From Dehalococcoidales bacterium (lineage in GTDB: Bacteria; Chloroflexota; Dehalococcoidia; Dehalococcoidales; Fen-1064), in assembly GCA_036396095.1 (NCBI GenBank), contig DASWLM010000021.1, forward strand, positions 9,071-73,070: a stretch of 64,000 nucleotides of DNA, given 5' to 3'. The notes under the pieces are model-generated. The model saw nothing but the letters and a program-made list of their open reading frames with translations. It had not been told where the DNA came from and did not search any database. Positions 2,568 to 38,083 of this stretch are shown piece by piece (position 1 is the first letter of the stretch; every line of letters begins with the position of its first letter). Position numbers and translations under genes: made by a program.

Positions 2568-2642
2568 GCGGAAGTAGTTCAGTGGTAGAATGCCTCCTTG
2601 CCAAGGAGGAGGTCGCGAGTTCGAATCTCGTCTTCCGCTCCA
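2568..2642 (+). tRNA. tRNA-Gly (anticodon GCC)
   Basis: Acceptor GCGGAAG/CTTCCGC, anticodon stem CCTCC/GGAGG with loop TTGCCAA, T-loop AGTTCGAATCT, encoded CCA. Confidence 0.9.
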
Positions 2643-2650
2643 GAAGTATT

Positions 2651-2739
2651 GCCGGAGTGGCGGAATTGGCAGACGCGACAGTCTCAAAAACTGTTGAGAG
2701 GCGACTCTCGTGTCGGTTCGACCCCGACCTTCGGCACCA
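2651..2739 (+). tRNA. tRNA-Leu (anticodon CAA)
   Basis: Acceptor GCCGGAG/CTTCGGC (one G-U pair), anticodon stem ACAGT/ACTGT with loop CTCAAAA, long variable arm, GGTTCGACCCC T-arm, encoded CCA. Confidence 0.85.
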
Positions 2740-2774
2740 GTGTTATTCGGGTAACCCCGATTGGTCATAATTAC

Positions 2775-3185
2775 ATGGTACATATGGGTACTAACAATCG
2801 TCCCACGGTTATAAAATCCTGGATCCGATTACTGCTGGTTATCGCCGGGACGGTTTCTGTCGGGCTTGGTATTCTGGGTATTTTTCTGCCGGTTTTACCC
2901 ACCACGCCTTTTCTCTTGCTTGCCGCCGCCTGCTACGCGCGGAGTTCACAGAAACTCTACAGCTGGCTCCTGTATAATAAGTGGTTCGGGAAGTACATTA
3001 GGAACTACATACAGAAAAAGGGTATTCCCTTAACAATAAAAGTCTGGACTATCGGGGTGCTCTGGCTGGCAATCGGGACATCAGCCATATTTGCGGTTGA
3101 AAGCCTGGTTATCCGAGTGGTCTTGGTGGTAATTGCTGTCTGTGTCACGGCGCATCTGTTACTGGTGCCGACTTATAAAGAATAG
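2775..3185 (+). CDS. DUF454/YbaN-like small inner-membrane protein
   Basis: The listed ORF 2598..3185 runs across tRNA genes. The first ATG clear of the tRNAs is at 2775 (residue M60). The product has motifs like LPTTPFLLLAAACYARSS and several TM helices. Confidence 0.65.
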   Translation: MVHMGTNNRPTVIKSWIRLLLVIAGTVSVGLGILGIFLPVLPTTPFLLLAAACYARSSQKLYSWLLYNKWFGKYIRNYIQKKGIPLTIKVWTIGVLWLAIGTSAIFAVESLVIRVVLVVIAVCVTAHLLLVPTYKE

Positions 3186-3224
3186 AAGCTATTAGCTTTC
3201 AGCAATCAGCTATCAGTTCTGGAA

Positions 3225-3280
3225 TATACTACTATCACCACACTGACGGAAGGTCTAGATTTACTCGTAGAAAATTTTGG
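3225..3280. repeat. Degenerate third copy of the promoter-bearing intergenic module (see 4172-4204 and 5448-5505)
   Basis: GGAAGGTCTAGATTTACTCGTAGAAAATT here matches GGAAGGTCTGGATTTACTCGTCGGAAAATT at 5473-5502. The -10 equivalent has decayed. Confidence 0.6.
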
Positions 3281-3334
3281 TTAGGCATGGAATCTGAATC
3301 TGGAATACCAGTCAGTTACTGCCTTAATGACCTG

Positions 3335-4132
3335 CTACCTAACCTCTACTCCCCTTTCCCTGAGTTGAGGAATCGAGACATTGAGCGACTCCTCATTCAA
3401 GGGATTTCCCTCAAGAATCCAGAGGGTACGTAGTTTAGTCAGGGAAATTAATGGCGAGATGTCACTTACCTGGTTGTTAAAGAGCCTTAATGTAATTAGA
3501 TTAGTTAATGAACCCAATGCTTGAATGTCTGTTATCTGGTTGGTTTCAGGACTGCCCATGAGTTCAAGAATGGTTAAGTTGGTTAATGAACCCAGAGGTG
3601 ATACATCGGTTATTCGGTTAAAACTGAGGGAAAGGTATTGAAGATTGGTTAGCGAGGCTAGCGGTGACAAGTCACTAACCTTGTTTGCCATAAGGATGAT
3701 TGAGCTTAGGTTAACCAACGAAGCTAGTGATGAGATGTCGCTGATTTCGTTACGACCAAGACCGAGGTATGTGAGGTTAGTGAGTGATGCTAACGGTGAT
3801 ATGTCCTTTATTTGGTTACCTGTAAGTTCAAGGTCTTCTAGTTTAGTCAGGTTAGCAAGTGGTGAAAGGTCACTAATCTCGTTGCCACCAAGATAAAGTG
3901 AAGTCAGGTTAGAACATTTCTCCAGACCTTTGAGGTTGGTGATATTTCTCTCATTTGCAATAAGTTGGTTAAGTCCCTCTAGGTCTGAGGGATATATTGA
4001 ACCTTCAGGCTTGTTGATAGCTTCTCTGATGGCTGCTTCAAGATTCGGGTCAGGGAACTTGACTGCATTTGAACCACAGCTAACAACAGTCGCCATAATA
4101 GCAACTATGAGAATGCCTATTATTACCTTCAT
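3335..4132 (-). CDS. Leucine-rich-repeat (internalin-like) lipoprotein
   Basis: Signal peptide with lipobox (VVSC). About eight 22-residue repeats of the form LxxLxxLxLxxNxIxDISPLxx. Confidence 0.8.
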   Translation of the reverse strand: MKVIIGILIVAIMATVVSCGSNAVKFPDPNLEAAIREAINKPEGSIYPSDLEGLNQLIANERNITNLKGLEKCSNLTSLYLGGNEISDLSPLANLTKLEDLELTGNQIKDISPLASLTNLTYLGLGRNEISDISSLASLVNLSSIILMANKVSDLSPLASLTNLQYLSLSFNRITDVSPLGSLTNLTILELMGSPETNQITDIQALGSLTNLITLRLFNNQVSDISPLISLTKLRTLWILEGNPLNEESLNVSIPQLRERGVEVR

Positions 4133-5709: not shown

Positions 5710-5957
5710 GTTTGGAAGTTTTCCGAACCTTCTTATTGAGAAGAAGGGACTGATTCCACCGCTTTAAGTTTCATTTTCAGAGCAAGTTGTACAAAAGACA
5801 GAACTTTTTCCTTAACTTTCGCCATACCTTAATCGACTAGCCCGAATCCCCGCGGCTCTACCAAATCAACACTCTAATATTGATACAACGAAAAGTCCTT
5901 TATAAATGGGCTTTTCAGCATTTTTAGGCTAAAATGACCATCGCTAAAAGGTCGATT

Positions 5958-5987
5958 TTGCACCTTTGCTTACCCCTTTGCTAAAAT
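5958..5987 (+). promoter_or_regulatory. Putative promoter of the leader-ORF/GNAT transcript
   Basis: TTGCAC-18 nt-TAAAAT, about 40 nt upstream of the leader ORF. Confidence 0.35.
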
Positions 5988-6028
5988 ACATGCACCCGGG
6001 GTGGGCTTTTTTGAAAGGGGGTTATCAC

Positions 6029-6085
6029 ATGAAAAATACAGTTAGAGTTATTTCAAAACATAATAGGAGGGTGACTATACTTTAG
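6029..6085 (+). CDS. Candidate 18-codon leader peptide (MKNTVRVISKHNRRVTIL)
   Basis: The ATG is preceded by AAGGGGG at 7-nt spacing. It contains tandem AGG AGG codons. The stop TAG at 6083-6085 lies inside the hairpin region. Confidence 0.3.
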   Translation: MKNTVRVISKHNRRVTIL

Positions 6086-6104
6086 CCCTCCTGCAAAACA
6101 GGAG
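6065..6104 (+). promoter_or_regulatory. Two mutually exclusive hairpins; the second sequesters the GNAT Shine-Dalgarno (translational attenuator candidate)
   Basis: Hairpin 1 is AGGAGGG (6065-6071) / CCCTCCT (6086-6092). Hairpin 2 is CTCCTG (6088-6093) / CAGGAG (6099-6104). The AGGAG at 6100-6104 lies 9 nt upstream of the TTG start at 6114. Confidence 0.4.
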
Positions 6105-6113
6105 AAAAACACT

Positions 6114-7109
6114 TTGGATAAGCCCCTAATAATTAAACCTTTGGACACAGGCTATTTTGATACCGTAGTTGAGTTAGCTTTAGAAAACTATTTGTTGGAA
6201 AGACATTCAGCAAGAGGTTTGTGTGAGAGAGCCAACAAAAGTTATTTCAGCAAACAGCTTGAAGAATTATTCTCAAAAGGAACAGGCAGAATGGCGTTTG
6301 AGGACAACACGCTCGTTGGGTTCTTAGCTTTTGGCGAGATATTTACTATTAATAAATCAGGTGCGAAAGGAGCAGCTTCACCTTTATGGGGATACGGCAT
6401 AAGACATAATGAGCGCGGAGAGATTATTGGAAGGCTGTTTCAAGATATAGCTGCCGAGCTCTGCGAGAATTTTGCTCAAGGCATGAATGTCAGTGTATAC
6501 GCTCACGATACGGAGGTGCTATGGACGTATATAATGAGTGCATTTTATATGGAACATACGGGTGTTGTGAGAGATGTATCTTCGCCCATAGAAGCGGAAA
6601 TGTCGGATAAGTATTCGTTCAGAGAGGTCGGAAAAAAGGAACTCATTCACCATAAGCACGAAATTGTCGAACTGTATAGGGGTCTTATAAATCATTTACG
6701 CGTGAGTCCGGTATTCTACCATTGTCGGCAATTTCTTCCGATTGAAAATCGCTTCGATGATTTCCTTAAAAACGATATGCGGGTTTTTGCTGTATTTGAT
6801 AGCAACAGACTGGTTGGCATGATAGATTCCGAACCGATAAACTGGGGATTTACTGTAGATGATACGGAAGCGCTTAGTATGGGTGATATTTTCATAGAAC
6901 CTGCTTATCGGGGGAGCGGCATAGCTATTGCTTTGTTAAAGTTTGCCAACGACGAGTTGAAAAGCAATGGTGTAAAACGATTGTTCGTAATGCATGGAAC
7001 GATAAATCCTAGCGCACGCGGATTTTGGGATAAATACTTCACGAATTATTCCTATACAATGTCGAGATTGATTGACCCTGATATGTTGGGAACAATTAAA
7101 CCTGTATAA
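6114..7109 (+). CDS. GNAT-family N-acetyltransferase (two-lobed, 331 aa)
   Basis: C-terminal acetyl-CoA motif IFIEPAYRGSGIAIALLKFANDEL. TTG start. Substrate unknown. Confidence 0.65.
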   Translation: MDKPLIIKPLDTGYFDTVVELALENYLLERHSARGLCERANKSYFSKQLEELFSKGTGRMAFEDNTLVGFLAFGEIFTINKSGAKGAASPLWGYGIRHNERGEIIGRLFQDIAAELCENFAQGMNVSVYAHDTEVLWTYIMSAFYMEHTGVVRDVSSPIEAEMSDKYSFREVGKKELIHHKHEIVELYRGLINHLRVSPVFYHCRQFLPIENRFDDFLKNDMRVFAVFDSNRLVGMIDSEPINWGFTVDDTEALSMGDIFIEPAYRGSGIAIALLKFANDELKSNGVKRLFVMHGTINPSARGFWDKYFTNYSYTMSRLIDPDMLGTIKPV

Positions 7110-26948: not shown

Positions 26949-28082
26949 TTATTTACCCTGCGGTATAGCTTTAAACAGTAAACGACTCACGACCAACCCG
27001 ATTACAAATACCCCAACCATAATGACCAGTTCCAGCCAGACATCACCGACAGTGCCGCCTTCGCTGATAATCTTTTTAAGGGCGTCGTTTGCATAACCGT
27101 TCACCGACATTTTGCTCAGTGTGTAAAGAAACGTGCCCTTGTTAATGGTGAAGAATGTACCACCGAGCATCGTCATACTCATCGTTACAAAGACTCCAAT
27201 CCAGGTAGCCGAATCTTGAGTGCGAGCAACGGAGGCAATGATAAGCCCGATGGCACTGCCTGCCATTGCGAAAATAAAAGAGATGAGGACGCACGTCAGA
27301 AAAGAGAGCGGTGTGAAAATTTGAAAGACGGCGTATGAAAGCGCCAGCAGGATGAAAGTCTGGACGAAACCGCGGGATACGCTTGCCAGAAACTTGCCAA
27401 AGAACAACTCGCCGACAGTGAGTCGTGTCGTCAGCAGTCGCTCTAGTGTTCCGATACGCCGTTCTTCGACGATGACGGCGGCACCGAGACTGATGGCAAA
27501 GAGGACATACATTGTTATAATGCCCGGCAGGAATTCATTTACTGTATTAGGTTTCTCGCCCACTGCCATCTCTGTAACATCAATGAGAGGGTCCTCTTGT
27601 TTCTGTGATTGCCCGGTAGTGATGACTTGTTCCCCCTGTACCTGTAAGTTCTGGTTTAAGCCACTGACCATGCCGCGGATAATACTGGCAATAATCTGTC
27701 CTTCCTGCCCGCCATTTCCTCTCTGCATGAAAGTAAGCTCAACAGATTGTCCGGCGCCTAATCTGTCCGAAAAATCTGCAGGGATAAGTAACACCAAATT
27801 AACAGCAGAGCGTTCCAATTTTCGCTCCGCGTCGGCAAGCAAAAGGAGTTCGATGTCCAAACTCTCTTCTGCCTCAATATTATCTATCAGTTGCTTCGCA
27901 TAGACACCGTTAGTATCTTCATTGACAATATAGGCAGTACCATGAAAAAGTCCCTGTCCGCCAAAAGCGCCGTAAATCAGGGCAAAAGTGGCAACGGGTA
28001 AGAGCAGACTGAAGGCAAGGTCACCCTTATCTTGCAGGTAGGTTTTAACTTCGCGCAGGGCGATTATCAGGGCTCTTTTCAT
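26949..28082 (-). CDS. ABC-2 type exporter permease
   Basis: 377 aa with the same architecture as its neighbour. Confidence 0.8.
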   Translation of the reverse strand: MKRALIIALREVKTYLQDKGDLAFSLLLPVATFALIYGAFGGQGLFHGTAYIVNEDTNGVYAKQLIDNIEAEESLDIELLLLADAERKLERSAVNLVLLIPADFSDRLGAGQSVELTFMQRGNGGQEGQIIASIIRGMVSGLNQNLQVQGEQVITTGQSQKQEDPLIDVTEMAVGEKPNTVNEFLPGIITMYVLFAISLGAAVIVEERRIGTLERLLTTRLTVGELFFGKFLASVSRGFVQTFILLALSYAVFQIFTPLSFLTCVLISFIFAMAGSAIGLIIASVARTQDSATWIGVFVTMSMTMLGGTFFTINKGTFLYTLSKMSVNGYANDALKKIISEGGTVGDVWLELVIMVGVFVIGLVVSRLLFKAIPQGK

Positions 28083-28089
28083 CGTTTAC

Positions 28090-28836
28090 CTAGTCGCGCA
28101 GGCTCCGGCCGGTGAGTTTCAGGAACACGTCTTCCAGTGTGGTTTTATCCGGGTCGCCGAGCTGAGCTTTGAGAGCGTGGGGCGTATCCATCGCAATTAT
28201 TTTTCCGTCGTCCATGATAGCGACGCGGTCACAGAGACGGTCCGCTTCTTCCATGTAGTGGGTGGTGTAGAGAACAGTCATGCCATTCTTTCGCAGACTC
28301 TGAATGGTCTCGAATATTTTATTTCGTGACTGCGGGTCGATGCCGACGGTTGGTTCGTCCAGGAAAAGCAGTTTCGGATGCCCCATCAGGGCAATCGCCA
28401 GGTTCACGCGGCGTTTCATCCCACCGGAGTACTTGGAGACCTTACCTTTTGCCCTCTGTTCCAGCCCCATTAGCGCGAGGTTGGACATAGCCTGGGCTTT
28501 AGTTTCCTTACCATTCAGTCCCACCAGTCTGCCGAAGAATGTCAGGTTATCCAGAGCTGTAAGCTCTTCGTATAACGCCAGTTCCTGAGGGCAGACTCCG
28601 ATGATGCTGCGGACTTTGTCCGCTTGCTGGCGGGTAGAAAAACCGCCGACGGTTATTTCACCAACATCAGGCTCAAGGACGGTCGCGAGCATACGAATGG
28701 TGGTGGTCTTGCCTGCGCCGTTAGGTCCCAATAACCCGAAGATTTCATTCTGCCCGATAGTAAAAGAGACGCCATTGACGGCTTTGTGGTCATTGAAGCT
28801 CTTGTGAAGGTCTTTGGCAACCAGAAATGCAGCCAT
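28090..28836 (-). CDS. ABC-2 type exporter ATP-binding protein (DrrA/CcmA-like)
   Basis: Walker A GPNGAGKTT, YSGGMKRR, Walker B LFLDEPT. Confidence 0.9.
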   Translation of the reverse strand: MAAFLVAKDLHKSFNDHKAVNGVSFTIGQNEIFGLLGPNGAGKTTTIRMLATVLEPDVGEITVGGFSTRQQADKVRSIIGVCPQELALYEELTALDNLTFFGRLVGLNGKETKAQAMSNLALMGLEQRAKGKVSKYSGGMKRRVNLAIALMGHPKLLFLDEPTVGIDPQSRNKIFETIQSLRKNGMTVLYTTHYMEEADRLCDRVAIMDDGKIIAMDTPHALKAQLGDPDKTTLEDVFLKLTGRSLRD

Positions 28837-29000
28837 GATTTTTCTCCAAGAGTTTTATTACACTGGCATTGACTATAACAGGAAACCATCAAGATGTAAA
28901 TCATACTACAGAGTGAAAACAGTCTAGCTCATATCATTCTTCAGGAGTATTGAATACTAGGCACTTATTGTATACAATAGCCTTTAGGTTGACAATAAAT

Positions 29001-29909
29001 ATGAACGAAGATAATGCAGTCTTGCGCACCTCTCACCTCACCAAATATTATGGGAAGCAATGTGGTGTCGAAGACATCTCTCTTGAGGTGAGAAAGGGAG
29101 AGGTCTTCGGCTACCTGGGTCCGAATGGCGCTGGGAAGACAACGACCATCCGTACACTGCTCGATTTCATCCGCCCCACTCGCGGCGCTGCCACCATCTT
29201 CGGATTTGATAGTCGCTTGGGTAGTGTAGAGACGCGGCGCCGCATCGGCTACCTGCCCGGCGAATTATCGATGTACAGCAATCTTACTGGTGACGAACTT
29301 CTACGTTATGTTGCCAGCTTGCGGGGCGGAATTGACCTGAGTTACGCAATTGAACTGGCGAAACGGATGGATTGTGATTTGACACGGCATCTCAAGACTC
29401 TATCGCACGGCAACCGGCAGAAAATCGGATTAGTTCAGGCGTTTATGCATAAACCACAGCTCATTATCCTCGATGAACCGACTATCGGGCTGGACCCCTT
29501 GATGCAACAAGAGTTCTATCGTCTGATAGCCGAGGCGAGGACCGACGGACGTACGGTGTTTCTTTCGTCCCACATTCTGCCGGAAGTGGAGCGGGTGTGT
29601 GACCGCGTCGGCATTATCCGGGAAGGAAAGCTAGCAGCAGTGGAGACGGTCGAAACCTTGAAATCACGTGCTCTGCGGAGGCTGGAGATTCACTTTGCCC
29701 GCACCGTTCCGCAGGAAAGCTTCACGTCTGTTTCCGGCGTGCGTGACGTAATGGTGCGCGATAGTGTGTTAAGCTGTACGGTTATCGGGTCACTGGATGC
29801 GCTCATCAAGACCGCCGCCCGTTTTGAAGTGGTCAATATTGTCAGCCACGAGCCGAGCCTTGAAGAAGTTTTCTTGACCTATTACGGTGGGGGCAAGTCC
29901 CATGCTTAG
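29001..29909 (+). CDS. ABC-2 type exporter ATP-binding protein
   Basis: Walker A GPNGAGKTT, LSHGNRQK, ILDEPT. The ATG at 29001 (residue M18 of the listed ORF 28950..29909) is a guess, because neither candidate start has a well-placed SD. Confidence 0.85.
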   Translation: MNEDNAVLRTSHLTKYYGKQCGVEDISLEVRKGEVFGYLGPNGAGKTTTIRTLLDFIRPTRGAATIFGFDSRLGSVETRRRIGYLPGELSMYSNLTGDELLRYVASLRGGIDLSYAIELAKRMDCDLTRHLKTLSHGNRQKIGLVQAFMHKPQLIILDEPTIGLDPLMQQEFYRLIAEARTDGRTVFLSSHILPEVERVCDRVGIIREGKLAAVETVETLKSRALRRLEIHFARTVPQESFTSVSGVRDVMVRDSVLSCTVIGSLDALIKTAARFEVVNIVSHEPSLEEVFLTYYGGGKSHA

Positions 29910-30705
29910 AAACGTCTTTCTGAAGACTCTACGCGACCAGCGACGCTCTTTGATTTTCTGGGGTCTCGGGTTGATAGCCATCGCAGTAATCTGGACACTT
30001 TTCTACCCCAGTATCATGAATATGGAATCCATTCAACTGTATCTTGAGGAACTTCCCGAGGGCATGATGGAAATGTTCACTGGTGGTGAGGTAATCGACT
30101 ACACGTCACCGGTCGGTTATTTCAGCACAGAACTTTTTTTCTTTATGGTGCCTCTGCTATTCCTGGTTTTCGGAATCGGATTCGGAACAGGGGCAATCGC
30201 CGGTGAGGAAGAAAAGGGTACGTTGGATTTTCTGCTTGCCAACCCGGTGCCACGGTGGCGTGTGGTAGTGGAGAAATTCGGCGTGATGGTTGTTAGCATG
30301 ATATTGCTGGCATTTGTCTTCTGGGCAAGTCTGGCAATCAGTATAAAAGCAATCGATGTTGAACTCAGCCTGTTAAAACTGGCGGAAGCAACTATTAGCG
30401 TTCTGGTGCTGGGGCTGGTTTTCGGGGCGTTTTCTATATTGCTGGGATGCCTGAAGGGGAACCGTGGTATGAGCCTGGGGATTTCCGGCGGGCTGGTAGT
30501 ACTGACCTACCTCTTGAATGCCCTGGGAAGTATCGTGGACGGACTAAAGGATTACCGCTTCCTTTCGCCGTTTTATCACCACATAGAACCAAATATACTG
30601 AAAAACGGCATCGACCCGGTGCACATGCTGGTGCTGGTAGGATTGGTGGTGGTGTTCTTTGCGGCGTCCATCCCCGCTTTTACACGACGGGATATTGGGG
30701 TGTAG
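29887..30705 (+). CDS. ABC-2 family permease
   Basis: Six predicted TM helices. It overlaps the ATPase gene. An alternative ATG lies at 29902. Confidence 0.7.
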   Translation: MGASPMLRNVFLKTLRDQRRSLIFWGLGLIAIAVIWTLFYPSIMNMESIQLYLEELPEGMMEMFTGGEVIDYTSPVGYFSTELFFFMVPLLFLVFGIGFGTGAIAGEEEKGTLDFLLANPVPRWRVVVEKFGVMVVSMILLAFVFWASLAISIKAIDVELSLLKLAEATISVLVLGLVFGAFSILLGCLKGNRGMSLGISGGLVVLTYLLNALGSIVDGLKDYRFLSPFYHHIEPNILKNGIDPVHMLVLVGLVVVFFAASIPAFTRRDIGV

Positions 30706-32156: not shown

Positions 32157-32422
32157 TCTGTGTGCTCCTTCTGTCTTAAAACTAGGCTGTTATTTCCCCT
32201 GCTGAATTCAAATTATAACATTCTGAGAGAAAAATGATAAATTTCATCTGTTAGCAGTCAGCTATCAGCTCACAGTAAACCGATTTTCAAAATCAAACAT
32301 CAAATACTGAAATGAAAATAGATCATGATTCAATTTCGTTAATTTGAATTTGGATATCGTACCCAGGTTATTGACAATTCGAAAGATTACGCGTTGTGTC
32401 AGTGATGGTTCAAAGATTCTTG

Positions 32423-33040
32423 TCAGAGAAGCTTTTGAGCAGTCCTAGGTAGCCCTAAAATTTCACCTAAAAAAGAGAAATCCCCTTTTTGGTCAGCAAT
32501 ACTTCTATAAATGGAGGCTCGAGAGCCAGGATGATACATTGGCATAACCGTATATTTACCCCATTTTGCTAGTTTTCGTACCTGTCGCAGTTCGATTTGG
32601 TGTTCGTTGATAATGTGAAGTGACCGCAGAGCGCATTGACCTAATGGAACTATGAATTCAGGTTCAATAATATCGATTAATATACTTAAATGGAGAGAAC
32701 AGTTCTGGATTTCTGTTTTGTTTGGTGGCGAATTATTACCCTTTTCATCCCTCGGGTTACATAGTACGGCATTTGTGATAAATACTTGTTGTCTTGCTAG
32801 CCCAGCGAATTGAAGTAGCCGTTCGAAATTTGCCCCTGCCTTGTCGCCAAAGAAGGGAATGCCAGTCCGGTCAGCACCTAAGCGTCCAGGCGCTTCGCCG
32901 ATGAACATCACTTTAGAGTCAATGTTACCATTTTTTTCGCTTAGCACCTTGGTTCGTCCTTGCATACGCGAACACAAATTGCATCTATTAACATTTTCAA
33001 TAAGCAGGTCGAATTTCCGCCTTTTATCCGTATGAAGCAT
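32423..33040 (-). CDS. Family-4-like uracil-DNA glycosylase superfamily protein with Fe-S cysteines
   Basis: Motif A GEAPGRLGADRTGIPFFGDKAG, ITNAVLCNP, motif B YHPGSRA, and cysteines CNLC...C...C. I prefer the ATG at 33040, with GGAGG 5 nt upstream; the listed TTG at 33052 is less likely. Confidence 0.75.
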   Translation of the reverse strand: MLHTDKRRKFDLLIENVNRCNLCSRMQGRTKVLSEKNGNIDSKVMFIGEAPGRLGADRTGIPFFGDKAGANFERLLQFAGLARQQVFITNAVLCNPRDEKGNNSPPNKTEIQNCSLHLSILIDIIEPEFIVPLGQCALRSLHIINEHQIELRQVRKLAKWGKYTVMPMYHPGSRASIYRSIADQKGDFSFLGEILGLPRTAQKLL

Positions 33041-33041
33041 C

Positions 33042-34118
33042 TTAACCTCCAACTAGATTTCTTAAACAAAGCGGATCAGCTCTTTTGACTATGTCCCCAT
33101 CTTCCATAGACTCTTGTTCAATAACCTTCTGAGCAAGACATCCTGATTTACATTTCTCTAAATATGAGCAGTTAGAACATGGTTTTTCAAAAGGTGTTGT
33201 TAGATAACGTCTAATTGTTTTTAAATATTCTGATTGTTCCCAACATTCCCTCAAGGAGTGTTTATGAATATTATGGTAAGGATCATTCAACCCAATTTCG
33301 CTAGGCTCAGTATTTTTAAAGGCATCGCATGGATATATGTTACCGTTTGGTCCAATACATAGAGTGTTACTAGCTGCGTTGCAGTCGATCTTTTCATCTA
33401 AAATAAGAATATTATAAGGAGACCCTAAGCGAATATCAACGTTATAATGTCCCCTACATTCTAAGATTAAACTTCTCAATTCCAATGTTTCTTTATGCAT
33501 CAACATTTCATGGCTCTTTTTTAGAATTATACCCCGCCCTTGAGGAACAAATCGGAGAATGCTAACTTTATGAATACCCAAATTTTTGGCAAGTTCTATT
33601 AATCTATATAAATGTTTATAGTTTAGTTTGAGCGGAACAAAATGTATTTCTCTCTTTATATGATTTTTCCCCAACTCTTGTATTACTGCTAATGTTTTAT
33701 CAAAACTCCCTGCTTTTCTTGTTATTCTGTCATGCTGAATCTTTATGGGCGAATAAAGACTAAAAATAACCCTGCTTAAACCATCTTTGGTTAGGGCTAT
33801 AATTTCTTTTGATCCATCACCAGTTAGATTTATCCCCGTAGAGTATATTGAGCTCTGTAAACCATGTGCTTTACATGCTTTTACGGCATGTGCGATCCAA
33901 GGCCATAATAAAGGTTCGCCTCCAGAAAATACGATAGATTTTACGTGTAATTCTGCTGCTTGGCTGATGAGGGACAATACTGCCTTGCGGGTTAACTGAA
34001 TAGGATTACCGGAAGAAGCATCACTGGAACAATGTATGCATGAAAGAGGACAATTCTTTGTCAACTCAATTTTAACTTCTTCTAAATCACCTTCCTTAGG
34101 ATACTCATACATTCTCAT
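33042..34118 (-). CDS. Radical SAM enzyme with C-terminal SPASM/twitch domain
   Basis: CPLSCIHC (CX3CX2C) near the N-terminus. GPNGNIYPCD and CSNCSYLEKCKSGC (CX2CX5CX3C) in the C-terminal domain. Confidence 0.85.
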   Translation of the reverse strand: MRMYEYPKEGDLEEVKIELTKNCPLSCIHCSSDASSGNPIQLTRKAVLSLISQAAELHVKSIVFSGGEPLLWPWIAHAVKACKAHGLQSSIYSTGINLTGDGSKEIIALTKDGLSRVIFSLYSPIKIQHDRITRKAGSFDKTLAVIQELGKNHIKREIHFVPLKLNYKHLYRLIELAKNLGIHKVSILRFVPQGRGIILKKSHEMLMHKETLELRSLILECRGHYNVDIRLGSPYNILILDEKIDCNAASNTLCIGPNGNIYPCDAFKNTEPSEIGLNDPYHNIHKHSLRECWEQSEYLKTIRRYLTTPFEKPCSNCSYLEKCKSGCLAQKVIEQESMEDGDIVKRADPLCLRNLVGG

Positions 34119-34132
34119 GATTATTTTGGATT

Positions 34133-34756
34133 TTAACCTATCTGTTTGTGCAAACTAAATTCCAATGGCATGCCCTGCACTCCCCACTCACCACGATGAT
34201 CAAGCCAAGATTCAAACGCCATAGCGAAATCATGAGATAAGATACGATGTCCCCGGCTAATGCAGCAGAGATCTTCACTAGTCGGTCGGTATGGACGAAA
34301 GCGTTTTGGAATTGGTATAGGGTTATTCCCGAAGTAAACAAAATGTCGGGAAATAAGCAAACGGTTCACCTTTGTGTCGTGATCGGTATTCCTTGAATTT
34401 GGTTGACCTGTGTCAAGGCTATGATGCGAATCAGCTTGAACCCATTGGTAATTGTATCGATAATAGATGTTATCGCCATAAAGTTGCTTTAGGCTTCCGT
34501 TCATTAATGGCCGCTTACCTAGGAATCTAGGATCATTCCAATACGAGTCGAACTCCAAGACCTCATCTACTTTCATAGCGTAGATAAGATACCCCGCAAG
34601 ATTGTATTTTGTTTTTGCTCCAGTTCCGACTACCCAATCACCAACGGAAGCACGTGAACGAATTTGCGGTTTACACGTTGCTAATGTGCAGTATCCGTTG
34701 AAAGGATTCGGTGCGAATCCATAGTCACGCGCAACAATATAGGTGTATAGTTTCAT
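34133..34756 (-). CDS. Nmad2-like (nucleotide-modification-associated domain 2) protein, tentative
   Basis: N-terminus KLYTYIVARDYGFAPNPFNGYCTLATCKPQIR matches my memory of Nmad2-family proteins. The ATG at 34756 shares TAATG with the upstream stop. Confidence 0.45.
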   Translation of the reverse strand: MKLYTYIVARDYGFAPNPFNGYCTLATCKPQIRSRASVGDWVVGTGAKTKYNLAGYLIYAMKVDEVLEFDSYWNDPRFLGKRPLMNGSLKQLYGDNIYYRYNYQWVQADSHHSLDTGQPNSRNTDHDTKVNRLLISRHFVYFGNNPIPIPKRFRPYRPTSEDLCCISRGHRILSHDFAMAFESWLDHRGEWGVQGMPLEFSLHKQIG

Positions 34757-35235
34757 TAGCAACTAAACCTCCTAGGAGCCCATGTAGGATTTCTCGCTTC
34801 GCCGGTCTGCGGATCATCCCATACCACAATATTCCCATTGATTGCATCGACCACGCGGTCGCCCTGCCAGCCGACAATAGCTGCGTCACCACATCTCTCG
34901 AGCTCTTCAGGGATATCAGCATCCGCAGCTCCTCGTGCAAATACACCAATCACCCTTTTACCAAGCTGGTTAGCATATTGAATTTCCCAATTCACATACG
35001 GAGCCTGACCTGTATCGTGTGTGATCAGAACTACTACTGTACTTGCCCACTCGATTCTGGGCGCAAGGATCTGATATTTAATATACTGTTCGTTCTCGGC
35101 ATCGTTGGGTTTGTCGCTGGTGATCGAGCTGTCCCTGACCTCCATGCCGGCGTGCTCAATTAGCTGTTTTAATTCCGGTAGCAACGCGTCATCCTCGTGC
35201 ACATGAGAAATAAAGACGTTCTTCTTATCTACCAT
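34756..35235 (-). CDS. TIR-like domain protein (DUF1863/ThsB-type)
   Basis: NVFISHVHEDD N-terminal strand motif and YVNWEIQYA (conserved Glu). GGAGG lies 7 nt upstream of the ATG. Confidence 0.65.
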   Translation of the reverse strand: MVDKKNVFISHVHEDDALLPELKQLIEHAGMEVRDSSITSDKPNDAENEQYIKYQILAPRIEWASTVVVLITHDTGQAPYVNWEIQYANQLGKRVIGVFARGAADADIPEELERCGDAAIVGWQGDRVVDAINGNIVVWDDPQTGEARNPTWAPRRFSC

Positions 35236-35291
35236 CCCGTTTCCTCCGTCTATGAGGTTTCTTGGCTAAGGTCTAAAAACACGAGTGACGC

Positions 35292-35813
35292 TTAATCATC
35301 GCAACGAGCGCCACAGAGCTTCTTCAGTTCTGACTGGTATTGTTCTAAGTTATGCTGAAGTTCCTTAAATGCTTTCTCAAATTCGTTCAGCTTTGGCCAT
35401 TCTTTCTCATACTCAACTCTGCTCTTTTGCGCAGTATTATATTTGCTTTCATGAAGTTGGAGTTCATAGTGCCATTTGGTGAGGAAAGGGCGTAATCCTT
35501 TGTTTAGAAACTCGATAGCCAATGGTGCAAGAGAATTTCTACCGTGGGCGATAGAAGGTCCCGATTGGCTCAGAATCCTTCGTGTTTCTCCAAATAAAGC
35601 ATAAATAGAATTCAAGGCTTCTCTGATGGAACCATATTCAGGATCAACTGGTTGTACAGGGACTCTTGTGGATATTTCTATATATAACGACCATGCGGCT
35701 CTTATCTCGGAATCCTCGGGTACAAAGGTTGCACTCCCAGCATATGGGACGTTCATCGTGACACTCTCTAATTTTACTCCGGGATGTCCGCTTCTTTTGA
35801 AAGGATTCTTCAC
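35292..35813 (-). CDS. Hypothetical 173-aa, probably helical protein
   Basis: GTG start. I recognise no motif. It is sandwiched between the two TIR-like genes on the same strand. Confidence 0.5.
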   Translation of the reverse strand: MKNPFKRSGHPGVKLESVTMNVPYAGSATFVPEDSEIRAAWSLYIEISTRVPVQPVDPEYGSIREALNSIYALFGETRRILSQSGPSIAHGRNSLAPLAIEFLNKGLRPFLTKWHYELQLHESKYNTAQKSRVEYEKEWPKLNEFEKAFKELQHNLEQYQSELKKLCGARCDD

Positions 35814-35881
35814 GTCCTTTGGACCTCTTTATCCCTTAATATAAGGGCATTTTTACTTAGGGATTAAATGATAAGGATTTT

Positions 35882-36349
35882 CTATTTGTTTGGATCTTGC
35901 TCTATCCATTTATCAATCGCATCTGGATCCCAACTCATGTACATGGTTGATCGACCATTCAATAGAACATCGGGAATCCTAGCATTATCACACCCCTTCA
36001 ATCTCATACCTCGAATACGTTTCCAAGTTTCCCCTGGCAATCTGCTTTTCATTTCATAAAAGGCGTCAACTTCCCACTGAACCCAATCGCTTTGCCAAGT
36101 ATTCTGACCCACGAGAACAACCAACTTGGAGGCGCGCTGAAATTTATCGATAATTTCATCCCTTATGGGTTTAGACCTAGCGTCATCTGGCGGATACTTG
36201 ATAATTTTGCCCGTCCAATCCCTTACAGGTTCTTTCAGTGAATGGTCATGGAAATCAAGGGGATGATTAGGATTTTTAATGAGTGACGTGAATCCATTTA
36301 CTTGGTCAGCGTCATCATGGTCAAAACTGACAAAAACATTCGTAGCCAT
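35882..36349 (-). CDS. TIR-like domain protein (DUF1863/ThsB-type)
   Basis: NVFVSFDHDDAD, KLVVLVGQNTWQSDWVQWEVD (WxxWE glutamate motif). Confidence 0.7.
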   Translation of the reverse strand: MATNVFVSFDHDDADQVNGFTSLIKNPNHPLDFHDHSLKEPVRDWTGKIIKYPPDDARSKPIRDEIIDKFQRASKLVVLVGQNTWQSDWVQWEVDAFYEMKSRLPGETWKRIRGMRLKGCDNARIPDVLLNGRSTMYMSWDPDAIDKWIEQDPNK

Positions 36350-36394
36350 TTTGGGCTTCTCCCGAAAAATTGTCTTGCCGAAGGAGTTGTCCCT

Positions 36395-36423
36395 AGTTTA
36401 GTAGTTAAATTAAAATTTGTCAA
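36395..36423 (-). promoter_or_regulatory. Putative promoter of the TIR-like/Nmad2/rSAM/UDG cassette
   Basis: The minus strand reads TTGACA-17 nt-TAAACT, with the -10 about 45 nt upstream of the ATG at 36349. Confidence 0.5.
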
Positions 36424-36505
36424 CCTAAGAACCATTGCCTGAAGCTGCCACGATCTAGTAAAAAGTTGATTCCCTTTTTGGCTTTTTGTGAAAATTAATC
36501 CCACC

Positions 36506-38083
36506 CTACTCCCGAATCACTTTGCTTTTATGGGCGATGAAGTCCGTCAGAAGATAGCGTCCCAGTGTTTGTGCGCTGGTGAAAAACACTCGTCCCCGGT
36601 TAATCTTTGCCAGTCCGTTGATAAACTCCTCCGTAAAATCAGCCCCTTCGAAAATGAAAGCGTTGATAGTAATGCCATCTTCGGTGCAGTTTCTCACTTC
36701 GGCGAGCGTCATCTGACGGGTATGTTGGGTGGGGGGATATTGAGAGAAAACAGCGCCGTTTTCAATATGGGCAGTGGGTTCGCCATCCGTAATCAGGATA
36801 ATATGTTTATTTGCACTCGCTTCCCTGGCAAGCAACCGCCGCGCCAACCACAACCCGTGCTGGATGTTGGTGTGGCGGTCGCGGTTATCCCAGCCCATGG
36901 TGGGTAGGTCATCCGGCGCAATCTGCCGTGCGTAAGTAGAGAAACCGACTACATACAGGCTATCTGTGGGGAAGCTTGTCCTGATAAGCTCGGTGAGAGC
37001 CAGCGCTACCCGCTTCGCCGATTGAAAATTGCCGTGCCGCGGCATAGAACGACTTAGGTCAAGCAGGAGAACAGTCGCCGCGCGTGTCATCGGCTCAGTT
37101 TTCACCGTTTCGAAATCGGCCGGCGTGAGAGTGAGAGGCGGGTGCTGTGGTTCGCGAAGCAAAGAGTTCATGACAGTATTCAAGAGATGTAGATTGAAAT
37201 CATCGCCGAATTCATATTTTTTGGTCTCCTCGAGGCGCATGCCGCCGACACTGCTACGGTTAAGGTTATGATTGCCCGCACTGTCTCTCCTCAACTGCGC
37301 GTAAATTTCCTCCAGCGCTTTTTGCCCGATTCTGCGGATGGCACGTGGCGTCAGTTCGTGCCCCTTATCTGTCTCCCGAATATAACCGGCATTGAGCAAA
37401 AGAGAGTCAAGACAGCGAAGCCGTTCCATCCCGGCTAATGCTTCCTCACCTAGCACCTCCCCGACAAGATTCGGGTCAAGCCCATCCAGTGAATGACGAC
37501 GCTGATTCTGTTTCAATTGGGCTTCGAGCCTATCCATTCTCTGCAGAAGAACCGGTAACTTCAGAGCATCGTTGGGTGTAAGTTGCTCTTTATTATTCTG
37601 TGATTCCGCACCTTTCTCCATACCCATGTCAGTGGGTTTATTGCCACTACCCCCCAGTGATTCAAAGGAATTGTTTTGCAGAGCGGACAGCAGGCGTTCC
37701 AGTTCCCGGCGGGCATCCGTGTTGGAAAAACGGTGCTGTTTCAGCATCTCCAGTTGCCGGTCGATGTCTTCTGGCAGGTCAGTCAGTTGTTCCTTATCAA
37801 TGATTTTTTCCAGTTGACGACGGATAGCACGAGTAACCGAGGAAAAATCAAAGCGGTTTTGAAGCTCTTGTTTCTTTTGCTCCAGGCGCTGGTAGAGTTC
37901 ACGGTTGCCGGCGAGGTGTCTGCCTTCACTGTCCTCGATGCCCTCTCTCTGCATTTTCCATAACGCAGTTGTCAGGTCACCGTAAGCAGTTAGGTTGCGT
38001 TCAAGCTCAGTAAGCAGCCTGTCTTTATCGAGGTCGGGGAAATCCTGCCGACCATCCCAAGTGGTATAGCGATAGATACCCAT
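36506..38083 (-). CDS. von Willebrand factor A (VWA) domain protein with N-terminal coiled-coil region
   Basis: MIDAS-type VLLLDLSRSM motif and a C-terminal VWA fold pattern (IILITDGEPTAH). Confidence 0.8.
   Translation of the reverse strand: MGIYRYTTWDGRQDFPDLDKDRLLTELERNLTAYGDLTTALWKMQREGIEDSEGRHLAGNRELYQRLEQKKQELQNRFDFSSVTRAIRRQLEKIIDKEQLTDLPEDIDRQLEMLKQHRFSNTDARRELERLLSALQNNSFESLGGSGNKPTDMGMEKGAESQNNKEQLTPNDALKLPVLLQRMDRLEAQLKQNQRRHSLDGLDPNLVGEVLGEEALAGMERLRCLDSLLLNAGYIRETDKGHELTPRAIRRIGQKALEEIYAQLRRDSAGNHNLNRSSVGGMRLEETKKYEFGDDFNLHLLNTVMNSLLREPQHPPLTLTPADFETVKTEPMTRAATVLLLDLSRSMPRHGNFQSAKRVALALTELIRTSFPTDSLYVVGFSTYARQIAPDDLPTMGWDNRDRHTNIQHGLWLARRLLAREASANKHIILITDGEPTAHIENGAVFSQYPPTQHTRQMTLAEVRNCTEDGITINAFIFEGADFTEEFINGLAKINRGRVFFTSAQTLGRYLLTDFIAHKSKVIRE

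Follow-up and report, generated by a model that had tools for sequence, protein, structure and literature searches.

The stretch of DNA analyzed here (the window: 64,000 nucleotides of contig DASWLM010000021.1 from a Dehalococcoidales bacterium) carries an island of six genes, all on the minus strand and abutting or overlapping one another. The encoded proteins match NCBI records at 100% identity. In order, the genes encode a TIR protein, a protein of 173 residues without an assigned family, a ThsB-type TIR protein, an Nmad2 protein, a radical S-adenosylmethionine (SAM) enzyme with a SPASM domain and a protein related to uracil-DNA glycosylase (UDG) of family 4. The last two genes, and the cassette to which they belong, are the subject of this analysis. 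An earlier note on this DNA had described these two genes alone; they do not stand on their own, and in the window the pair forms the end of a TIR-Nmad2 cassette in a low-G+C island (Table 1). The G+C content is 0.35-0.43 across the island (32.0-36.4 kb), with the exception of one 400-nucleotide bin of 0.51 in the gene labelled TIR1, versus 0.51-0.55 in the flanking housekeeping genes; CoA-ligase-like and VWA/dehydrogenase genes border the island. We conclude that the island is horizontally acquired and that the cassette most likely represents an anti-phage defence setting. Convincing flanking repeats, tRNA-like or Rfam features were not found at the island boundaries, and promoter and terminator scans of the island gave signals no higher than shuffled expectation.

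Table 1. Coordinates of the island and its features in the window. DS-4 and locus label L011 are introduced in the text.
Feature	Position	Strand	Basis or remark
Low-G+C island with six genes	32157-36505		G+C profile
Family-4-like Fe-S UDG, short form, 205 residues from ATG, without Panacea domain	32423-33040	minus	Pfam UDG
Coupling junction	33038-33050	minus	GGAGG 33050-33046; radical SAM stop TAA 33044-33042; 1 nucleotide; UDG ATG 33040-33038
Radical SAM/SPASM enzyme, 358 residues, uncurated family	33042-34118	minus	Pfam Radical_SAM and SPASM
Nmad2	34133-34762	minus	Pfam Nmad2 E 2.2e-67; 43% identity to DS-4 gene 5
ThsB-type TIR, 159 residues	34756-35235	minus	Pfam ThsB_TIR 7e-19; PADLOC ThsB 2e-53; overlaps Nmad2 by 7 nucleotides
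Conserved unknown protein, 173 residues, upstream of TIR	35292-35813	minus	Homologue position in L011
Second ThsB-like TIR, 155 residues	35882-36349	minus	Pfam ThsB_TIR 3.9e-18

The radical SAM protein has a core beginning at residue 14-17 and the motif CPLSCIHC, in which C23, C27 and C30 form the CX3CX2C arrangement typical of these enzymes. Further downstream, CNAASNTLCIGPNGNIYPC holds the C246...G-X4-C264 part of the SPASM signature (GNIYPC264), and the C-terminus contributes C314-X2-C317-X5-C323-X3-C327 followed by C351, so that the seven-cysteine motif (CX9-15GX4C ... CX2CX5CX3C ... C) is complete. All ten motif cysteines are kept without exception in two alignments, one with 13 and one with 38 relatives, at identities as low as 44%, and both Pfam Radical_SAM (E 2.6e-16) and Pfam SPASM (29.9 bits, cut-off 21.5) match the protein. 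Its AlphaFold2 model is confident (pLDDT, the predicted local distance difference test, of 89). The nearest solved folds found by Foldseek are SuiB, PqqE, SkfB, CteB, BlsE, anSME and DesII, all of them SPASM/twitch enzymes, with viperins and MoaA ranking next and all of these at 13-19% identity; spore photoproduct lyase (SPL) was absent from the top 50 fold matches. SPASM enzymes are known to act on peptide, cofactor and sugar substrates.

Curated SPASM/twitch models were considered for NirJ2, AhbD, PqqE, MftC, anSME-type enzymes, sactipeptide and ranthipeptide maturases, and MoaA. Membership in any of these families was rejected: the best NCBIfam match was NirJ2 at 99.6 bits versus a cut-off of 500, and the protein reached 91.6 versus 381 bits for PqqE and 65.7 versus 325 bits for MoaA. 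Maturases of RiPPs (peptides synthesized by the ribosome and modified after translation) are recognized by a RiPP recognition element (RRE) domain and/or an adjacent precursor gene. No N-terminal RRE domain was found among the sequence domains or in the AlphaFold2 model searched with Foldseek, and no plausible small open reading frame (ORF) for a precursor peptide lies near the gene, where the genes abut or overlap. The radical SAM protein is a bona fide SPASM enzyme outside the curated peptide and cofactor families.

The protein encoded downstream matches Pfam UDG (E 7e-28), and its best solved relative is the family-4 UDGA of Thermus thermophilus (1ui0; phmmer E 2.5e-24). C-X2-C, GEAPG, PF(F)G with the stacking Phe, ITNAVLCNP, the fourth Cys and HPG are all in register with 1ui0, and C20, C23, C94, C114, GEAPG, N90 and H170 are invariant in an alignment of 23 sequences (A4). 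The residues that define family 4, namely four Cys, GE(A/G)PG, Phe, Asn and His-Pro, are thus all present, and the protein shares its fold, its four-cysteine [4Fe-4S] site and its PF, N and HP motifs with Thermus UDGA. It nevertheless does not reach the NCBIfam cut-offs of UDG_fam4, Arch_udg or UdgX. The scores are 96.4 versus 125.3 bits for TIGR00758 and 105.1 versus 250 bits for NF040953, which indicates a distinct subfamily of family-4-like UDGs, and 74.9 versus 189.95 bits for UdgX (TIGR03914). A motif that sets it apart from family 4 is GEAPGRLGA. With all family-4 catalytic and Fe-S residues kept, the enzyme looks active. Unlike stand-alone family-4 UDGs, members of its clade sit in a cassette, usually with a C-terminal Panacea fusion. 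On a Dehalococcoidia contig (SHYL01000003.1; L072:4920-7385), the carA and carB genes of a pyrimidine-biosynthesis operon enclose a gene for a short UDG with 48% identity that also has GEAPGRLGA, and the cassette enzyme may descend from this housekeeping protein.

The junction between the two genes reads GGA GGT TAA g ATG, with GGAGG 5 nucleotides upstream of the UDG ATG; an alternative UDG start, TTG at 33052, would overlap the radical SAM gene by 11 nucleotides. Because of the 1-nucleotide gap and the GGAGG ahead of the ATG, translational coupling of the two genes appears sound, and an identical gap is found in loci L006, L009 and L074-76. The SPASM-type cysteines, the family-4 motifs with four cysteines and the coupling across a single nucleotide had all been pointed out in the earlier note, and each was recovered here. 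That note had also set the pair apart from an rSAM-UDG linkage already in the literature, in which an SplB-like radical SAM gene is linked to a UDG and DUF4130 and is proposed to act on thymines (PMC3765255). The distinction is justified. In those operons the UDG, of the UdgX type, is likewise related to family 4, but the radical SAM enzyme is SPL-like and without SPASM. In the window, TIGR03916, the model of that SplB-like family, was absent from the 25 best NCBIfam matches of the radical SAM protein, the UDG has no KRRIH loop sequence of the UdgX kind, and DUF4130 was not found by Pfam at the locus.

The radical SAM protein belongs to a large family; at E < 1e-10 it has 1382 relatives. When a single genome of each species was scanned, 57 loci (labelled L with a number) were obtained, in Chloroflexota, Planctomycetota, Bacillota, Desulfobacterota, Acidobacteriota, Verrucomicrobiota, Zixibacteria, Nitrospinota, Actinomycetota, the Candidate Phyla Radiation and Bathyarchaeia, that is, in more than ten phyla; the carriers are mostly anaerobes. 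In 39 of the 57 species-level loci, again from more than ten phyla, the radical SAM gene is followed by a UDG gene of the same clade with 1-nucleotide gaps or overlaps, and the UDG carries a fused C-terminal SocA/Panacea domain in 34 of these 39. Another 14 loci have no UDG and carry a 5-hydroxymethyldeoxyuridine (5-hmdU) DNA kinase (Pfam HMUDK_hel, E 5e-113) upstream of the radical SAM gene, in most cases directly. The kinase, hereafter HMUDK, in some cases forms a fusion with thymidylate kinase or with MazG and MazG_C, and it never occurs together with the UDG in the 57 loci. About 48 loci have an upstream protein of about 250 residues with PC(L)..Q, R-x-x-D-x7-N and SHAY motifs spaced as in thymidylate synthase (TS); six of 18 members of this TS-like group match Pfam Thymidylat_synt (best E 7e-5), the sole family to recur among them. 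A dCTP-deaminase-like gene is present in 5 loci, and an XRE repressor with an IrrE/ImmA protease in 12-13.

This partner repertoire means that every recurrent enzymatic partner has either deoxyuridine or thymidine nucleotides or DNA-borne uracil-type bases as its target. The suggestion in the earlier note that the pair performs nucleobase or nucleotide chemistry has strong support from gene context (TS-like protein, HMUDK, thymidylate kinase, MazG/MazG_C, dCTP-deaminase-like protein, UDG); its narrower idea, that the UDG fold presents or exchanges the base for the radical SAM enzyme, is speculative. Two outcomes which that note had held against its own proposal did not materialize: NCBIfam scores and inspection of ORFs revealed neither a fit to a maturase family nor a nearby precursor gene, and the pairing is conserved in other genomes.

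The arrangement seen in the window is one variant within this family. The row of 173-residue gene, TIR, Nmad2, radical SAM and UDG recurs in other Dehalococcoidia (L010 and L011; 64-76% identity of the radical SAM protein) and on contigs L074-76, where it adjoins BREX/Dnd-like genes (DUF4007, AAA_16, a 3'-phosphoadenosine 5'-phosphosulfate (PAPS) reductase and BrxC). Contigs of equal size (e.g. 6936, 9822, 4626, 17603, 6804 and 3939 nucleotides) recur in all three homologue lists, which suggests that Nmad2, radical SAM and UDG occur together on many further independent contigs from metagenomes. In a neighbor-joining tree the window-type cassette is nested in a clade of TS-like - radical SAM - UDG-Panacea cassettes as sister to L006 and L009. 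Such nesting in one narrow clade implies that the TS-like gene with Panacea and the TIR gene with Nmad2 are modules that can replace each other around a radical SAM-UDG core. The flanks of L006 contain CD-NTase, HEPN and methyltransferase genes. A decayed copy of the cassette was found in an uncultured Dehalococcoidales metagenome-assembled genome (L008), with the radical SAM gene interrupted at 5732-6830 and no UDG behind it. The radical SAM gene is also interrupted in Geotalea toluenoxydans JCM 15764 (L062:6001-7028), and both cases are either decaying copies or assembly errors.

The TIR-Nmad2 half of the cassette links it to DS-4 (working name NTTI), a defence system of E. coli validated in the DefensePredictor study, whose genes encode thymidylate synthase, a deoxynucleoside monophosphate (dNMP) kinase, a 5-hmdU DNA kinase-like protein, TIR and Nmad2 (PMC13092281). 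The window TIR is 38% identical to DS-4 gene 4 (E 6e-30) and the window Nmad2 matches DS-4 gene 5 at E 5e-55, and the 7-nucleotide overlap of the two genes is common to both systems. DS-4 has neither a radical SAM enzyme nor a UDG, whereas the thymidylate synthase, dNMP kinase and 5-hmdU DNA kinase of DS-4 are missing from the window; a TS-like profile search and Pfam searches of the neighbours found no TS-like gene, kinase or HMUDK in the 64 kb. Rows resembling DS-4 with a radical SAM gene inserted (TS-like - kinase/HMUDK - radical SAM - TIR - Nmad2) do occur in L048 and L023, so that TIR-Nmad2 is joined to this radical SAM family in three arrangements, those of the window, L023 and L048. Elsewhere, the TIR-Nmad2 pair is found with MazG_C and HMUDK amid type I restriction-modification, GmrSD and Mrr genes. 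As a main explanation we rejected the view that radical SAM-UDG and TIR-Nmad2 are two unrelated adjacent systems, because they are found together in three different gene orders and on numerous independent contigs.

Both TIR proteins of the window also recall Thoeris, being of the ThsB type, and the TIR of 159 residues keeps an 'NWE' motif with the TIR catalytic Glu. The island has no ThsA (SIR2, Macro, transmembrane, SLOG); Nmad2, radical SAM and UDG occupy that place. SLOG is the signal-sensing domain of Thoeris ThsA. In a planctomycete single-cell genome (L023:3204-7295) the order is radical SAM, 8xMP (an octameric membrane protein), TIR, Nmad2, an AAA+SLOG protein and a TIR2 homologue; the close homologue of the 155-residue TIR beside this cluster matches at E 2.5e-70. 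In L065 a TIR-SLOG protein precedes TIR-Nmad2. The AlphaFold2 model of Nmad2 has a pLDDT of 76.5, and its weak fold resemblances are to PUA-like modified-base readers and hydrolases (ASCH, EVE/THYN1, YTH, McrB-N and VcaM4I), a resemblance that can serve as a lead only. Invariant polar residues of Nmad2 are C25, C30, K31, R35, H113, H114 and D129, and their large number makes a catalytic role of Nmad2 possible.

Our favored explanation is that the radical SAM-UDG pair forms the enzymatic core of a cassette which is horizontally mobile, probably directed against phages, and couples radical chemistry on deoxyuridine-type bases to base excision, to which we assign a probability of roughly 0.55. 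The anti-phage part is proposed because TIR-Nmad2 is homologous to the validated DS-4 genes 4 and 5 and because of the defence-island contexts, and the uracil-type chemistry because the recurrent partners of the radical SAM family are pyrimidine and deoxyuridine enzymes. From the domain identities, intact motifs, conserved gene order and coupling, partner repertoire and island context we infer a substrate, an order of reactions and a defence phenotype as follows. Substrates could be uracil, 5-hydroxymethyluracil or other C5-substituted uracils, in DNA or in nucleotide precursors. The SPASM enzyme, using a 5'-deoxyadenosyl radical and two auxiliary clusters, would alter such a base or nucleotide, and the co-translated Fe-S glycosylase, judged by its intact active site, would flip a uracil-type base out of the DNA and excise it, and the resulting abasic sites would stop the invader from replicating. 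In most genomes the TS-like enzyme may supply or activate the C5 position, and the antitoxin-type Panacea domain on the UDG probably restrains the system. In the window variant both are replaced by ThsB-type TIR and Nmad2; Nmad2, possibly PUA-like, would read the modified base and TIR would serve as an NAD-consuming or signalling effector. Panacea, or TIR-Nmad2, would thus provide control, read-out or amplification. A more specific version is that dU/hmdU nucleotides, or a uracil-type base within DNA, are the direct target of the SPASM enzyme, which would create a new lesion or modification; the dedicated Fe-S glycosylase would excise it, Nmad2 would read the product and TIR would amplify the signal. 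We regard this version as tentative and rather less probable than the general one.

Several observations weigh against this interpretation. With no TS-like gene in the window, any step that makes the base must differ there. The TS assignment itself is weak at the profile level, with Pfam scores below the gathering cut-off; the TS-like profile had zero matches in the PDB, and its hhalign comparison with the DS-4 thymidylate synthase was insignificant. The fold matches of Nmad2 to PUA-like proteins are weak (E 0.01-0.1, TM-scores 0.4-0.53). At the motif level the active site of the UDG is the same as in stand-alone relatives with 48-51% identity, one of which lies in the carA-carB operon, and for this reason the enzyme may simply be a uracil-type glycosylase that needs no radical SAM product. 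In some loci (L001, for example) no neighbouring gene is clearly one of defence. PADLOC v2 contains no model of the cassette and gave weak pVip matches to the generic radical SAM core alone.

One alternative is that the family hypermodifies the DNA of its own host or mobile element: radical SAM, TS-like protein, kinases and HMUDK would build a hypermodified thymidine, while UDG would remove or exchange unmodified or intermediate bases, the result being an epigenetic or anti-restriction mark. The partner set of dCTP deaminase, MazG, TS-like protein, kinases and HMUDK indeed corresponds to the phage toolkit for hmdU-based hypermodification, in which gp53 of phage M6, a radical SAM isomerase acting on DNA-borne thymidine adducts, works alongside 5-HMUDK and aGPT-Pplase (PMC8989533). 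This combination of radical SAM chemistry on C5-substituted uracil in DNA with a 5-hmdU DNA kinase corresponds to the partner set of our family. M6 gp53 is, however, SPL-like and not of the SPASM type, our family is cellular rather than phage-borne, and no aGPT-Pplase or pyridoxal phosphate (PLP) enzyme lies nearby. The window cassette moreover has none of the TS-like, kinase or HMUDK genes, the TIR, Panacea and IrrE/XRE partners suggest a conditional toxic or defence function, and DS-4, with a related parts list, protects against phage (PMC13092281). The radical SAM family is almost missing from viral sequences: a phage origin was rejected after tblastn against 50,697 GenBank phage records gave at most 28% identity, and a scan of 2.9 million IMG/VR viral contigs gave just two distant relatives. 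We consider self-hypermodification unlikely, and about equally so a viperin-like role, in which the enzyme would make a chain terminator or an antimetabolite out of a pyrimidine (deoxy)nucleotide and the glycosylase or an N-glycosidase-like TIR would release or detoxify the base, compare the peptidyl-nucleoside antibiotic pathways with MilA/MilB/MilG and BlsE. PADLOC pVip matches reach E 1e-19, BlsE (which has a cytosine nucleoside substrate) and viperins are among the Foldseek neighbours, and the TS-like and kinase partners act on mononucleotides. Assignment as a prokaryotic viperin (pVip) was rejected, since the NCBIfam model NF038283 scored 49 bits versus a cut-off of 180 and viperins have no SPASM domain; the pVip match spans only residues 18-198 of the generic core. 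The two constant partners that exclude each other, UDG and 5-hmdU DNA kinase, are enzymes directed at DNA, and activity on free nucleotides is not known for the family-4 UDG fold.

Less likely still is anaerobic DNA repair, in which the pair would have the housekeeping task of mending a lesion derived from uracil or thymine, like the SplB-like radical SAM-UDG-DUF4130 repair and mutagenesis operons, with TIR-Nmad2 as an unrelated neighbour. The repair context of that separate linkage (PMC3765255), the similarity of the UDG to the stand-alone protein of the pyrimidine-biosynthesis operon and the prevalence of anaerobes among carriers would all fit. A patchy spread across phyla, the low-G+C island, the UDG-Panacea fusion in 34 loci, the three arrangements that join TIR-Nmad2 to the radical SAM gene, the IrrE/XRE switches and the defence-island neighbours of L006 and L074-76 do not. 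A RiPP or cofactor maturase that merely adjoins an ordinary UDG is highly improbable and was already disfavored. Its closest solved structures (SuiB, PqqE, SkfB, CteB and anSME) speak for such a role, but identity to them is low, RRE domain and precursor-like ORF are absent from a locus whose genes abut or overlap, every curated maturase model scores far under its cut-off, and different phyla have the pairing with nucleotide enzymes in common.

Excision of modified pyrimidines is already known from the anti-phage UDG-fold glycosylases Brig1 and Brig2, the latter acting against phages with hypermodified thymidine (PMC11078745; bioRxiv 10.1101/2025.10.29.685425). These are single-gene systems without a radical SAM partner and, as far as described there, without an Fe-S family-4 signature. 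For radical SAM chemistry on DNA-borne thymidine adducts, the SPL-like M6 gp53 is the precedent (PMC8989533). A literature search gave no relevant paper on 'Nmad2' and nothing that brings SPASM together with anti-phage function and a glycosylase, or Panacea with a radical SAM enzyme and a glycosylase; the original Nmad-domain paper lies outside its coverage. The window thus holds a putative nucleotide-modification defence cassette of the DS-4 type whose enzymatic core pairs a SPASM radical SAM enzyme with an Fe-S glycosylase.

If our interpretation is correct, the SPASM repertoire gains nucleic-acid base chemistry in a family of 1382 relatives whose constant neighbours are uracil- or thymine-directed DNA and nucleotide enzymes alone, and, under its more specific version, prokaryotic immunity gains an arm of radical base damage and excision. 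The finding connects the TIR-Nmad2 system DS-4, UDG-fold defence glycosylases and phage thymidine hypermodification, and hints at a modular family of immune systems based on pyrimidine modification. Through such a large and coherent radical SAM family, new DNA chemistry and the way TIR-Nmad2 systems work may become accessible, and new DNA-modifying or DNA-excising activities could have potential as tools. The family is tractable, being present in the cultured strains Moorella mulderi DSM 14980, Desulfitobacterium sp. THU1 and Heliomicrobium undosum.

Further observations concern relatives of the cassette and its surroundings. Seven loci with HMUDK (L034, L040, L042, L052, L053, L056 and L062; about 2600-4130) have three genes ahead of the TS-like gene, encoding a protein of about 100 residues with an acyl-carrier-like 'FDSL' motif and no Pfam match, an XRE helix-turn-helix repressor and an IrrE/ImmA (Peptidase_M78) protease; the latter two look like a damage- or infection-triggered switch. 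In one subclade of this type (L053:7026-8525, L054, L056 and L064) a conserved protein of about 500 residues, also with no Pfam match, is encoded directly behind the radical SAM gene at the usual place of the UDG. The aerobe Sphingopyxis macrogoltabida (CP012700.1; L069:2249-4890, and L068) has MazG_C - TS-like - UDG-Panacea without a radical SAM gene, and a transposase splits the row in L068. One of the two viral-contig relatives of the radical SAM protein, with 34% identity and SPASM kept (IMGVR_UViG_3300017991_000200; L077:3951-5015), lies beside a UvsW-like helicase, a DnaB-like helicase and a primase, with neither UDG nor TS-like gene beside it. PHROGs gave nothing for UDG, Nmad2 or the 173-residue protein, and the latter had zero matches in Pfam, NCBIfam and PADLOC as well; its position is taken by a homologue in L011 and by an unannotated gene for 173-180 residues in L074-76. 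Immediately upstream of the island, a 525-residue VWA-domain protein with a long, coiled and charged N-terminal half is encoded at 36506-38083 on the minus strand, and it probably lies outside the cassette because its G+C content matches that of the host genome. At 26949-30705, two divergent ABC-transporter pairs (ATPase and ABC-2-type permease) are arranged around the intergenic region 28837-28949 and are unrelated to the cassette.

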